A stretch of 64,000 nt of DNA, taken from Eledone cirrhosa. Taxonomy: Eukaryota. This document shows, in pieces, positions 20,060 through 53,921 of this stretch. Under the pieces are notes generated by a model. It did no database searches. It was not told the origin of the DNA and saw only the letters and a program-made list of their open reading frames with translations. Positions within the stretch are counted from its first letter, which is position 1. Each line of letters opens with the position of its first letter. A program made the translations under genes and the position numbers. The stretch is from assembly GCA_964016885.1 (NCBI GenBank), contig OZ024743.1, positions 370,574,001 to 370,638,000 of the forward strand, written 5' to 3'.

Positions 20060-20492
20060 ATACGATATTAAACAAATGGAAACTATATTTATAAAACCAT
20101 ATTTATTTCATTATACATATTTCAGGGATACCATATTAAAAATATGGCATGCCTTCGTCAGATAAAATACAATATATAACCAGTTTTATAAATAATTTTG
20201 ACGTACCATAAATATAGCGACCATTAAACCTCCTACCTTAATGGTCGCTATATTTATGGTACGTCAAAATTATTTATAAAACTGGTTATATATTGTATTT
20301 TATCTGACGAAGGCATGCCATATTTGTAATATGGTATCCCTGAAATATGTATAATGAAATAAATATGGTTTTATAAATATAGTTTCCATTTGTTTAATAT
20401 CGTATATCTACTCCAAAAACTTGTCGAGTGCTTTATATCAGTTATAAAATATTTACTTGTTGTAACCCAACAATTTTAAATAAAACTTTTGC
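20060..20492. mobile_element. Foldback pLTR mini-element (family A) with a hammerhead in each arm
   Basis: Arms 20060-20227 and 20238-20407, 10-nt spacer, unpaired tail to 20492, (TA)n flanks. Confidence 0.9.
20297..20360 (+). ncRNA. Hammerhead motif (mirror copy 20105-20168, minus)
   Basis: attttat CTGACGA agg C atgccatatt-tgt-aatatggtat C cct GAAA tatgta TA atgaaat. Confidence 0.8.
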
Positions 20493-20773
20493 ATATATAT
20501 ATATATATATATATATATATATATATATATATATATCCTGGGTCCTGTATTTTCATTGCTCTAGTGATGCGGCTGGACTGCCGACCGCTATATCTGATTT
20601 GCTAAGCTGGATGAACGTATTGTTATTAGTCTGGGGTTCTTTTCCCCATCTGAGTGCTAAAGCTACAGACCGATTCTGCATTCGTTAGCTTGGCCGTGTT
20701 CTAAAGCTTCGATAATGCTGTACTCAAATTTATATATATATATATATACTCGTATATATATATATATATATAT

Positions 20774-20960
20774 ACGATGTTAAACAAATGGAAACTATAT
20801 TTATGTAACCATATTTATATAAATATATATATAAATATATATAAATATAGTTTCCATTTGTTTAATATCGTATATCTACTCCAAAAACTTGTCGAGTGCT
20901 TTATATCGGTTATAAAATATTTACTTGTTGTAACCCAACAATTTTAAATAAAACTTTTGC
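20774..20960. mobile_element. Shorter foldback copy of family A
   Basis: Same 3' tail as 20375-20492, preceded by an inverted aaacaaatggaaactatatttat arm. Confidence 0.8.
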
Positions 20961-20987
20961 ATATATATATATATATATATATATATA

Positions 20988-21284
20988 TAAATGTTCACTC
21001 TCCATGGCTGAATACAATAAATATAATCTGAGTTTTTCGAATATAAATAATAATATTCGATTCATTTGCAATTATGCAAGCAGCCTCTTTTTTAAAGCCA
21101 TGTCAGTAGAAAGAGCCACTCATTCTTGCTTTGATGTAAACAGAACTGCAGACACTAATGTGTCTAGAGCAAGAATGAGGGACTCATTCTACTGACATGG
21201 CTTTAAAAAAGAGGCTGTTTGCATAATTGCAAACGAATCGAATATTATTATTAATATTCGAAAAACTCAGATTACATTTATTAT
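20988..21284. repeat. Foldback insertion in (TA)n, no recognisable hammerhead
   Basis: Arms about 21016-21134 and 21163-21283. Confidence 0.8.
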
Positions 21285-22021
21285 ATATATATACACACAC
21301 ACACACATACATACATACATACATACATACATATATATATATATATATATATATATATATATATATATATATATATATATATATATATATACCTATCTAT
21401 ATATATACATTATATAAAATTAACAAAGATCGGTGGTATTAATTCAATGGTCTCCAGCCAGCGTCTAGCTCACTCTTTGTCAAATTGCAGCAATGCCGTT
21501 ACAATCAGCCATTCAAAGTGCACACATTTAGTTAATAGCAGATGCTGTGGCAGTGTTTGGGTAGAGAGAAAGGTGAAATTCTCATCCCTTGGACAATATT
21601 GTTTCTGTGCAACATATCTTCACAAATCCAGATATAGAACCTCAATGTTCAGAAAATCACGTAATATGTGCTGACATTTACGTAACCTGGCTGTTACACT
21701 CATCAGCAAGGATACCCAAGTCATACGATAGTTCCAAACAGTGTGTGTTAACCATTGCCACAGGATAAGGTATCCAGTAGTCCCAGATGATTTAGAAATT
21801 TATCACAGACTATAACACATGATTTGGCAGTTGAATTCAAACAAAGGAATTTGTGCCAAGTAAAGAACATGCATACATATAAACATAATAAGATTCATGC
21901 ATATATTTATATATGCAAGCAAATAATAGTTGATGATTGATACAAAATCGAACATTCAATATAAACAAGAAATATCGAAAATCCTAACCTTGTACAGGAG
22001 ATCCCAATCAGTGCTGTAAGG

Positions 22022-22320
22022 AGGGGTCGATAAAATAAAGTACCAGTAATGAACTGGGTAATTGCTGGCCTTGTGCCTAAAGTAGAAACAAATATATATA
22101 TACATAATATATATATATATATATATATATATATATATAATTGTTTCTACTTTAGGCACAAGGCCAGCAATTACCCAGTGCATTACTGGTACTTTATTTT
22201 ATCGACCTCGTAAGGATGAAAGGCTAAGTCAACCTCGGCGGGATTTGAACTCAGATAGTAAAGGGACGTAACTATGCTGGAAAGCATGGCGTCCGACTCT
22301 CTACCGATACTGCCAATGAC
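22022..22320. mobile_element. Two tRNA-SINE copies tail-to-tail around (TA)n
   Basis: Plus 3' part 22022-22091; minus full copy 22138-22320. Confidence 0.8.
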
Positions 22321-22452
22321 CGTTCAGTCTGTCGGGCGCCAATCGGCACCGCTGGTCACAGCACGTCGTGCTGTTTTAGCCATAAGATAACGCCATCCCA
22401 CTGGCTGGGCGGGCAGGCCGGTACTCATTTCTACAGCTGAGTAAACTGGAAA

Positions 22453-50267: not shown

Positions 50268-51337
50268 CAGTTATACCAATGCACAGTGGAATCAGACAAC
50301 CAGAAATGGTATTATATCGGAGCAACTGGGAATACATTTAAAGCCCGTTGGTATACACACCGTTACGCAATGAAACATTCCCAGCATCGTTATGTAACTA
50401 CTCTTGCAAACAAGACCTGGCAACTGAGGGAAAGTAACCATCAATACACCCTAAAGTGGAAAAAATTATCGAACGCGCCCCGATATCGGAGTGGTATGAG
50501 AAGCTGTCGATTATGTGACCTTGAGCTGTTCCACATTTTGAGTTCGAAGAATAAGTTACTGAACAATAAAATCGAAAGATCAATTTATTGTAAACATAGA
50601 CTCAAAGAAAAGTTTTCGCACTACAAGTGCAAATCGAACCCTTAACCTCTTACTACCAACTGACAAACTGCATATACTTAGACTTTATACCCTCTTATTG
50701 TATCTAACCCATTTAATTACCCACAAAAACCAATACCTATATCCCTCCCTTCTCCTTCATTCCTCTTCTATTTCTTTTCTTTTCTTCTTTCTCCCCCCCC
50801 CCCTTTACTTTTATTTTTATCATTATGATTTGTATCTTTATTTTTTATATATGCATATATATATATATATTTATCTCTTTATCTCTTCCCCCCTCTCCCT
50901 CTCTCCATCCCTCCCACTATGATCAATTTAATTCTCTTTAACTCACTACATTCACAGTCATGAAGTCTACATATCAAAACTCTACCACCTCTTCCACCTC
51001 TACCCCTCACTCCATCTCAGTTTGTCACTCTACTTCCTAACTCTTCTCCCCCTTCCTCTCTCTCTATACTATTCCGTCTGTCCCCTCACTATCTAATTCC
51101 TCTTCCTCTCTCTCTATACTAGTAAATACAATTCCCAAAAAATGTTTTTCTCTATATTAAGAACTATTTCAAGAGTAACTTACTCACTATTTTGAAAATG
51201 TGGACGTAAACAACAATTATCATTGAGTGGCTGCTGTTTGCAGTATAGCAATATAAGGTTGCACTTACCAATGAAACGGTCGTAAATACCTGGATAAAAT
51301 CCTTCTCTTAATGCTTACCTGTGTTTTCTCTTTTATA
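50268..51337 (+). mobile_element. 3' fragment of a Hydra-like PLE (GIY-YIG + 3' UTR)
   Basis: LYQCTV..YYIGATGNTFKARW..H, CRLC..E, CKH; (TA)n on both sides. Confidence 0.8.
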
Positions 51338-51834
51338 CTATATATATATATACACATATATATATATATACATATATATATATATATATATATATATATA
51401 TATATATATATGAACATATATATATATATATATATATATATATATATATATATATATATATATATATTAATATATATATATATATATATATATACATATA
51501 TATATATATATATATATATGTATACATATATATATATTAATATATATATATATATATATACATATATATATATATAAATATATATATACATATATATATA
51601 TATAAATATATATGTACATATATATATATATATATATATATATATATATATATATATATATATATATATATATATATATATATATATATATATATACATA
51701 TATATATATATATAAATATATATATATATATATATATATATATATATACATGTGGGAGGTGAGTTTTATTTTAGTATGTTGATTTAAAACTGCACTATTC
51801 ACAAGTGTGTTTTAACCTTCATATCATGTCTCCC

Positions 51835-51905
51835 TATTTTATCTGACGAAAACGCAAATGTTATTGCATGATGATATTTGTTTTTGAAATGCGCATAATA
51901 AAATA
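51835..51905 (+). ncRNA. Hammerhead motif (family H)
   Basis: tattttat CTGACGA aaa C gcaaatgttatt-gcat-gatgatatttgt T ttt GAAA tgcgca TA ataaaata. Confidence 0.8.
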
Positions 51906-52261
51906 CATGGAAATCTTTTAACCATCTTTTGATCTTATGAATTATTATATATATATATATACATATATATATATAAATATATATGTATATATATATATAT
52001 GTATATATACATATATATATATACATATATATATATATATATACATATATATACACATATATATATATACATATATATATATATATACATATATATATAT
52101 ATACATGTATATATATGTATAGGAACAAATATGACCCCGACGGCAGAGCTCAAGCCGTTTCGACGCCTATTTCCTATTACCCACTCTACTACCCTAAGTA
52201 TTGAGTACTTTGGTGCGTTATGGTCTATCTGGTTCCTTACCACAATTCCTTCGTTATATAC

Positions 52262-52500
52262 ACATGTCGTGCGCATGGAGGATGACCGCCGGGTAAAGAA
52301 GTGCCAAGAAATCCCAGTAGAAGGAAGACGCAGTAGCGGTAGACCACATAAACCATAGGCAGGGGTGGTGAGAGCAGACCTCAGATCGCTGAAACTCACC
52401 GAGGAGATGACGAAGGACCGTCACAAGTGGAGAGATGCTGTGCTGAATAGGACCATTGCAAGCAGGGAAAAGCGATCATAAAATGATGATGATGATGATA
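52262..52500 (+). mobile_element. RTE-clade LINE 3' tip with (GAT)n tail
   Basis: [23 protein letters not shown]. Confidence 0.75.
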
Positions 52501-53612
52501 TATATATACATATATACATATATATACATATATATATATATATGAGCGGAACAAGTAAACTTTAAACAATCTTTTAAATAAATTAAAATATGATATTTAA
52601 ATATTTACCTCTTCTAGTGCCATGACCGACGGTTTCGCTTATCAAAAGATTGGAATGGAAATATATATATATATATATATATATATATATATATATATAC
52701 ATATATATATATATTTATATATATGAATATATATATATATATATATATATATATATATATACATATATATATATATTTATATATATGAATATATATATGT
52801 GTATATATATATATATATATATTGGTAAACAGAATAGAAAATGCTGACAAATTGTTGACAGTTGAAAAATGGTTTAATTAGGGATAAAAGAGTATTAGTA
52901 ATTGTATGGGTTAGTATTCAGTTGTGGTTTTAAGTTTTTAAGTTTTTACCGGTTGCGCATTTCTAAATGCTTTTCAAAAATAATTTTGAGATAGAGTGTC
53001 CGTGCTGTTCGCTCTGATCCAAGAGAAAAATAATGTAAAGTTAAGGTTTGTATAATATATATACATATATATATATATATATGTACATATATATATATAT
53101 ATATATACATATATATATATATATATACACATATATATATATATATATATATATATATATGTGTATATATATATATATGTATATATATATATATGTACAT
53201 ATATATATATATATATGTATATATATTATTAAACCCTTCAATATACAAACCTTAACTTTACATTATTTTTCTCTTCGTTAATTTTCAAATTCTTTTAATT
53301 TATACATTATCTTTCAACGGTTTTCAACCTCTCTATGTAAAACAATATATTTTTCTCAGTTATAAAAGCTATCTCTCTCTCTCTATCACCCATCTCTCCT
53401 CCTATCTCATCCTTCCTCATTATACTCCTCCCTCTCCACTTTTTACTCTCATCTCCTCCTCTTTTTCATCCTTTCCAACCCCCAACCCCCATCCCCTCAA
53501 AATAAAATATATTTTTTTCCCAAATCACACATCAATCTAAAACTACTTTTCATATGTTGATTTAAAACTGCACTATCCACAAGTGTTTTTTAACCTTCAT
53601 ATCATGTCTTCC

Positions 53613-53686
53613 TGTTTTATCTGATGAAAACACAAATATTATTGCATGATGATGATATTTGTTTTTGAAATGCGCATAATAAAATA
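53613..53686 (+). ncRNA. Hammerhead motif (family H, second copy)
   Basis: tgttttat CTGATGA aaa C acaaatattatt..gatgatatttgt T ttt GAAA tgcgca TA ataaaata. Confidence 0.8.
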
Positions 53687-53921
53687 CATGGAACTCTTTT
53701 AACCATCTTTTGTTCTTATATATTATCTATATATATATATATGTATATATATATATATATATGTGTATATATATGTATTTATATATATATATATATGTAT
53801 ATATATGTATTTATATATATATATATATATATATATATATATATATATATGTATTTATATATATATATATATATATATATATATATATATATATATATAT
53901 ATATATATATATGTATATATA

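Follow-up and report, generated by a model that had tools for sequence, protein, structure and literature searches.

Endonuclease-positive (EN+) Penelope-like elements are built, in the published descriptions as far as these were accessible, as a canonical unit with four features: (i) an inverted truncated copy; (ii) a tail at one side only; (iii) a hammerhead ribozyme; (iv) targeting to (TA)n tracts (PMC8557442, PMC3846280, PMC8969392). The available parts of two papers state the origin of the tandem or inverted ends and of the one-sided tail as an open question (PMC8557442, PMC11167929), and the accessible text of another explains head-to-head junctions through self-priming on an antisense template (PMC3846280). 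In vitro, the protein of Poseidon PAc of Anolis, a predicted dimer, cuts both strands and extends them, with synthesis beginning at two internal sites, according to the available part of that study (PMC11167929). The present analysis concerns a window of 64,000 nucleotides from Eledone cirrhosa (assembly GCA_964016885.1, contig OZ024743.1, positions 370,574,001 to 370,638,000, forward strand), in which short hairpins lie between (TA)n tracts. With a probability of about 0.78, these hairpins are 5'-truncated two-armed Penelope-like insertions, formed through double target-primed reverse transcription on a likely capped RNA and subsequent end-joining. The original prediction, drawn from the window alone, knew inverted pseudo-LTRs to be described but no account of this regular multi-family pattern; the shape is already published (PMC8557442, legend of Fig. 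2), and what the present data add is a base-exact footprint across the genome that makes the integration mechanism testable. A literature search, which did not cover older subscription papers and supplements, gave no account of paired start sites, double priming or cap run-off in Penelope-like elements.

The architecture had been named at ten sites of the window, belonging to families A (20060, 20774, 34252 and 40771), B (20988), C (37426, 40553 and 52120), D (44926) and E (48596). Each arm meets the (TA)n tract at one of two fixed sites, proximal or distal, and the tail is the segment between them. At the first site, a (TA)n tract (20023-20062) adjoins an inverted family A arm on the minus strand (20063-20227; hammerhead core at 20161), which starts at the proximal site; it is followed by a plus-strand arm (20229-20492; core at 20304) that ends at the distal site with a 90-nt tail (20403-20492), and by a second tract (20493-20536). 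The other two-armed insertions of this family are one with very short arms and AT-rich filler (20775-20960), a reversed one with the tail on the left (34254-34720; hammerheads at 34438 on the minus and 34622 on the plus strand) and an older one, also with the tail on the left (40771-41207). The older foldback of family B (20990-21281) has a short left tail, and in other copies of the family the hammerhead core lies further upstream. Family E is represented by a two-armed insertion at 48598-49109, with hammerheads at 48696 (minus) and 48912 (plus) and a tail at 49011-49109. The family C insertions comprise a two-armed copy with the tail on the left and only the 3' half of a variant hammerhead (40555-40744), a plus-strand copy with a tail arm and an inverted arm of only about 6 nt (37427-37522), and a copy in which an inverted proximal arm of about 46 nt faces an almost tail-only arm (52122-52254).

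Self-alignment of the segments lying between (TA)n tracts recovered foldbacks at 20063-20402 (96.5%), 21017-21281 (85.8%), 34331-34729 (98.3%), 40635-40744 (90.9%), 40862-41207 (93.4%), 48598-49010 (94.9%) and, in the kilobase element, 45015-48570 (87-98%). Together with a short foldback seen directly in the sequence at 20775-20870, a palindrome is present at eight of the ten sites (seven by self-alignment, 20775 by eye). At 37426 and 52120 the self-alignment was empty; two arms are present there, with an overlap below 10 nt and no palindrome, so that the proposed common architecture holds for palindromes at eight sites and is reduced at two to paired arms with almost no overlap. Foldbacks with a length of 80 nt or more, at 85% or higher, occurred in 6 of 32 segments of 90-700 nt, as against 0 of 160 shuffled segments. 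The further claim of a ribozyme on each strand proved true of three or four sites and not as a general rule: a motif scan for the minimal type I hammerhead found it on both arms at 20060, 34252 and 48596, and a fourth pair was seen by eye at 40771. The remaining six sites are without a full canonical ribozyme on each strand; the copy at 20774 is not long enough, that at 20988 lacks the core, and short family C copies keep the 3' half only. An Rfam scan of the window gave 162 matches, and the 150 of these that were listed included no hammerhead family, nearly all being sub-threshold microRNA (miRNA) hairpins.

Judged by their frames and motifs, the sequences of families A, C and E are termini of autonomous Penelope-like elements that encode a reverse transcriptase (RT) and a GIY-YIG domain and bear Hydra-clade motifs. 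In other loci, family A extends upstream into a 3' untranslated region (UTR) of about 2 kb, followed by the GIY-YIG domain and the RT, and downstream through the tail into a start codon; families C and E likewise run into RT and GIY-YIG frames. The complete layout is found at locus L283, where an inverted arm, a pseudo-long terminal repeat (pseudo-LTR), a tail, an open reading frame (ORF), a pseudo-LTR and a tail follow one another in a unit of about 3.7 kb, with the pseudo-LTRs, adjoining inverted truncated copy and one-sided tail that characterize EN+ elements. The single ORF with RT and C-terminal GIY-YIG, another EN+ mark, is recognized from motifs and from the nearest Atlas clusters, which carry GIY-YIG and HTH_animal families at 0.95-0.98; four aligned RT frames show 41-47% identity to the first. 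A type I hammerhead motif with an 8-bp stem I and a folded stem II was present in 314 family A arm matches (partly overlapping loci), and predicted ribozymes of this type lie in the pseudo-LTR in families A and E, as in EN+ elements.

The likeness to the Hydra clade, as described in the accessible part of PMC8557442, comprises the C-terminal GIY-YIG, DKT, CxCX5C, CxxC near the end, a hammerhead and (TA)n insertion. DKT, the CxCX5C linker, the terminal CxxC and (TA)n targets are all present in family A; families C and E show CxCX5C and CxxC, and no DKT was seen in them, the frames read beginning after its position. Unlike that clade as described there, family A has RWR in place of RWK, the elements measure about 3.7-5 kb with long 3' UTRs instead of less than 3 kb, and family C carries a hammerhead of the U3-A8 core variant; clade likeness here rests on motifs.

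The hairpin shape also occurs with kilobase arms, at two places in the window. Element D (44926-48570, plus strand) is a decayed autonomous Hydra-type element with RT and GIY-YIG frames at 45961-47593 and an inverted, tail-bearing arm on its left, interrupted at about 45230-45415 by a repeat resembling a short interspersed element (SINE). At 48500-48540 it contains a hammerhead-like motif in which A replaces U at core position 4. The second, outside the range first considered, is an autonomous Neptune/Nematis-like element (10287-17904, minus strand) with an open frame of 1294 codons that ends at the proximal site and hammerheads at 10481, 14794 and 17652; its 3-kb inverted arm (14913-17904) is 99.7% identical and bears a 58-nt tail, the full-length arm being without one, and the same arm rule is followed at a large scale. 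This range of sizes, from short hairpins to kilobase arms, indicates that the hairpins are not the separate, MITE-like mini-elements they had been taken for; they are short products of autonomous elements. Identity as miniature inverted-repeat transposable elements (MITEs) was considered and rejected on the asymmetric ends, the varying centres (0 of 49 identical) and the retroelement parent.

Non-LTR retrozymes, according to the accessible part of a recent preprint (bioRxiv 10.64898/2026.07.22.740005), likewise contain type I hammerheads in short sequences akin to the pseudo-LTRs of Penelope; they are non-autonomous head-to-tail tandems, in contrast to the head-to-head products of autonomous elements described here. 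For families A, C and E this identity was rejected, the copies being head-to-head and continuing into ORFs. Family B may differ: no parent ORF was found for it, and in three loci (L287, L294 and L297) the sequence after the tail recurs upstream of the hammerhead, again with no ORF, which suggests a retrozyme-like head-to-tail unit of about 400 nt.

At their outer ends, the arms obey a base-exact rule. Exact family A junctions with (TA)n numbered 2,388 at the proximal and 1,841 at the distal site, the latter 90 nt further on; family C gave 20,807 exact proximal junctions, and across families the distal site lies 80-100 nt further 3' than the proximal one. In read-through copies, each of the two sites is followed by TA-type sequence over 2-6 nt. 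The original reading had the shorter arm usually halting at an internal TA-rich site; it does so, at a fixed TA-type site. Pairing was examined in the first 91 family A proximal matches of contig 1. Within 1.5 kb, 49 of them have a partner arm reaching the distal site, and the partner extends to that site in all 49 short pairs; one further row, an already counted locus seen from the opposite end, was dropped. Among the other 41, about nine lack a partner, and the rest have long partners or extend past the stretch examined. Twenty larger stretches, picked because a second end lay nearby, added further distal partners and two proximal-proximal loci. The hand tally used for testing was 57 distal against 4 proximal partners, with three more distal cases left out, and a binomial test of independent choice gave p = 1e-16. 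Starting instead from 30 distal matches, 7 arms outran the stretch and an inverted partner was found for 20 of the 23 remaining. The two fixed starts are thus nearly always used in a complementary fashion, one arm proximal and its partner distal. In three raw restriction-site-associated DNA (RAD) runs of other individuals, 6,326-9,332 reads per run enter (TA)n at the proximal site. The self-complementarity of (TA)n, to which the hairpins had been attributed, was overstated as a cause: the arms use two fixed sites in an AT-rich leader, not any TA, and the insertion unit is also in print with ordinary 8-10 bp target duplications (PMC3846280, accessible part).

The two arms of a copy resemble each other more than they resemble other copies, with 1.65 against 10.2 differences per 150 nt in 20 family A copies (permutation p = 5e-5), the own arm being the best or tied match in only 13 of the 20. 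Arms differ by 0-3% in young copies and by up to 14% in old ones. These results support the proposal that each palindrome formed at insertion. None of the 49 pairs has both inner end points in common with another. The tail-less arm reaches more than 10 nt further 5' in 19 pairs, the tail arm does so in 9, and the two agree within 10 nt in 14; in the other 7 the partner is tail-only and hence there is no palindrome. At the extreme, tail arms of 29 and 43 nt stand opposite arms of 2-3 kb. Each arm has sequence missing from the other in 26 of the 49 pairs, which a single fold-back could not give without later deletion, and in several of these copies, among them 189/82 and 172/96, the arms are identical (0 arm-arm differences). 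The junctions of the 42 overlapping pairs show 1-4 nt of overlap in 19, blunt joining in 4, at least 5 nt of overlap in 4 and filler in 15. A pile-up of tail arms at the proximal site, where 6 of 49 end at 85-105 nt from the end of the tail, may reflect a collision on one RNA. Arm ends at the cleavage site of the hammerhead were limited to scattered cases near 43-58 nt in family A and 1 of 30 in family C. The filler at loci L022, L092 and L130 consists of repeated short copies of arm ends and resembles iterative templated synthesis in end-joining. At locus L041 (G000:C1, near 35919586), a family A proximal arm stands head-to-head with some 20 nt belonging to the 3' terminus of the 10287 family, possibly as a cross-family pair or through deletion into an older copy.

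The inner ends pile up at one base, here called +1. In family A, 32 of 91 arm ends fall 165-192 nt from the proximal site and 12 of 23 tail arms measure 251-277 nt; in family E, the interval from -3 to +12 of one base takes in the ends of 16 of 25 tail arms and of 13 of 18 proximal arms, in loci chosen by similarity to a query beginning just past it; in family C, most arms measure at most 60 nt. The pile-up base is in all three families the A of a pyrimidine-pyrimidine-A motif, which we take to be an initiator, and in family C a TATA-like word lies 29 nt upstream. The +1 of this family falls within the loop of the variant hammerhead, and short copies therefore keep only half of it. An extra base was sought by counting G against A replacing the genomic pyrimidine before +1, with a control position for each family. 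The counts of G and A were 2,929 and 567 before +1 and 224 and 583 at the control in family C, 132 and 37 against 7 and 21 in family E (Fisher p = 8e-8), and 146 and 109 against 13 and 30 in family A (Fisher p = 0.0015). Of 62 G loci inspected, 61 are junctions, the exception (L269) resembling a point change, and in 94 family C loci both arms end in the extra G with 0-2 nt between them. The excess of G probably reflects copying of the RNA cap; an untemplated 5' G is an accepted sign of cap copying for L1 and SVA, according to the portion of PMC4859970 available.

These results lend support to the view that both cut ends prime reverse transcription and that the two cDNAs are joined head-to-head, which the original prediction had already put forward. 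The protein of the element would cut both strands of the (TA)n tract, and each cut end would prime a separate cDNA, with the likely capped RNA of the element as template. One end starts at the proximal and the other at the distal site, each with a TA-type target match of 2-6 nt, and these different starts leave only one arm with a tail. As the two sites are situated in the 5' leader, 58-320 nt past +1, most cDNAs reach the 5' end of the RNA after no more than a few hundred bases and run off there, probably often copying the cap as an extra G. Kilobase arms would arise when a read-through transcript is primed at its 3' copy of this leader repeat. The free cDNA ends would then be joined head-to-head through 0-4 nt of microhomology or short filler, presumably by a repair pathway, and the agent is probably a dimeric enzyme holding both sites, as the accessible part of PMC11167929 leads one to suppose. 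We infer the double-strand cut, the cap, the dimer, the repair route and the use of one RNA or two. Whether Penelope integration in general is such a coordinated double priming, with one dimer, one capped RNA used at two fixed leader sites and a hairpin leader copy with cap as its default product, is evenly balanced. If it is, a single step would account for the tail as well as for the inverted pseudo-LTR and the pseudo-LTR boundary, and the tens of thousands of copies in this genome would record the double-priming step base by base.

Several observations weigh against this reading. Pfam and PDB searches with the ORFs gave no significant match. The G excess in family A is weak (1.3-fold); in unselected samples, arms scored as ending at +1 bore the extra G in 0 of 16 (A) and 0 of 7 (C) cases; and at 19 of 50 G loci the partner arm could supply the G, its own next base being a G as well. 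Both +1 and the cap are deduced from DNA. The nine or so partnerless proximal arms and the two proximal-proximal loci depart from the pairing rule, and in several pairs both arms are longer than the leader, which requires two RNAs or strand displacement. Long near-symmetric pairs also occur away from +1 or any hotspot (640/640 and 685/690) and fit either fold-back or two cDNAs annealing at a short palindrome. The start sites of PAc are not homologous to the cut DNA, in the part of PMC11167929 available, whereas short TA matches are the rule here. Finally, the junction at 20228 of the window was not bridged by reads of four public runs.

Fold-back after a single priming, with the first cDNA copying itself and later central deletions creating the asymmetry, is improbable. 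It also predicts the symmetry of 14 of the 42 overlapping pairs, some of them centred on short palindromes of the element, and the near identity of the arms, and deletion repair yields filler junctions too. It does not readily yield the 26 pairs with arm-private sequence on both sides, some at 0 differences, or the tail arms of a few tens of nucleotides facing kilobase arms; the 0-2 nt between the two extra Gs of 94 family C loci are too short for a priming loop, and no reason is stated for the second arm to stop at the proximal site. Slightly less probable still is self-priming of antisense or hairpin transcripts (PMC3846280, accessible part), in which an existing foldback RNA is reverse transcribed whole and spreads in the manner of a MITE. 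Recurring centres are what it would lead one to expect, and within each family a junction does recur, in 2 of 30 loci of A, 3 of 25 of E and 5 of 12 G-selected loci of C, while the 94 C loci have near-identical centres. Yet no two consecutive family A pairs among the 49 agree in both end points, the extra G sits at the sense +1 on either arm, and the recurring C junction is found in different sequence variants with the tail on either arm, which means that it arose repeatedly; the antisense self-priming account is disfavoured by these observations. Fixed centres, which would have marked true MITEs, are confined to a minority (the three E loci and the 94 C loci), attributable to shared run-off at +1 combined with microhomology.

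An artefactual origin of the palindromes at (TA)n tracts, in assembly or library, is very improbable. The unbridged junction of the window speaks for it, and palindromes are familiar trouble spots of assembly; the divergence between arms, rising with the age of the copy, and the base-exact family rules of the ends speak against it, as does the recurrence of opposite-strand joints in three independent raw read sets, the RAD runs, where with one arm as reference they appear in 12 of the 15 shown of 40. Double priming thus remains the favoured explanation.

Set beside the canonical EN+ unit as given in the accessible parts of its descriptions (Craig et al. 2021, PMC8557442; Arkhipova et al. 2013, PMC3846280), the insertions share the adjoining, head-to-head, inverted 5'-truncated copy, the tail at one end, the hammerhead in the pseudo-LTR and the (TA)n targets. 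They differ in a tail of 58-99 nt instead of 30-40 nt and in the two-armed form, optional there and in the majority here, most copies consisting of the leader only. The run-off at +1, the extra G and the proximal/distal pairing rule are absent from those parts of the descriptions. With PAc (Frangieh et al. 2024, PMC11167929) they have in common two internal RT starts that bound a tail near the RNA 5' end and an AT-rich target; PAc belongs to a different clade, and in the available portion of that paper the start site did not differ between the strands and the later steps are left open. In the present insertions the two ends use different sites. Twin priming of L1 (cited in PMC4859970 and PMC4729875, both seen in part) similarly involves priming by two target ends, microhomology joining and an untemplated cap G. 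The second site of L1 is variable and its arms do not overlap, according to the same portions of these papers; here both sites are fixed, and a palindrome results from the usual overlap of the arms.

The genome yields base-exact predictions in three families for the transcription start, the two priming sites and the junction chemistry. Repeat libraries could misfile the hairpins as MITEs or miRNA precursors, as the sub-threshold Rfam look-alikes illustrate, and the more than 20,000 short palindromes in (TA)n could give rise to double-stranded RNA or unstable DNA.

The window contains further related sequences. A single plus-strand family A arm, with its aligned part at 34050-34207 and a hammerhead at 34102, ends at the proximal site, and a further hammerhead-bearing family is represented by two single plus-strand arms (51769-51945 and 53547-53726) without an inverted partner. 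Another Hydra-type element with CxCX5C and GIY-YIG lies at 17991-20022, ends in (TA)n and has a compact hammerhead of the U3-A8 core variant near 19929. Two tRNA-like SINE copies (22023-22317), 98.5% alike over 67 nt, are arranged tail-to-tail across (TA)n, a geometry opposite to that of the Penelope pairs; similar TA-centred inverted flanks were seen at loci L009 and L017. Two adjoining decayed frames at 23482-30776, which we take from their motifs to be Helitron-like Rep/Pif1 helicases, and decayed non-LTR retrotransposon RT frames of two other kinds (55588-57914 and 947-3064) were also present. At 61504-61624 there is a 5S rRNA-like match slightly over the Rfam threshold (40.8 bits).

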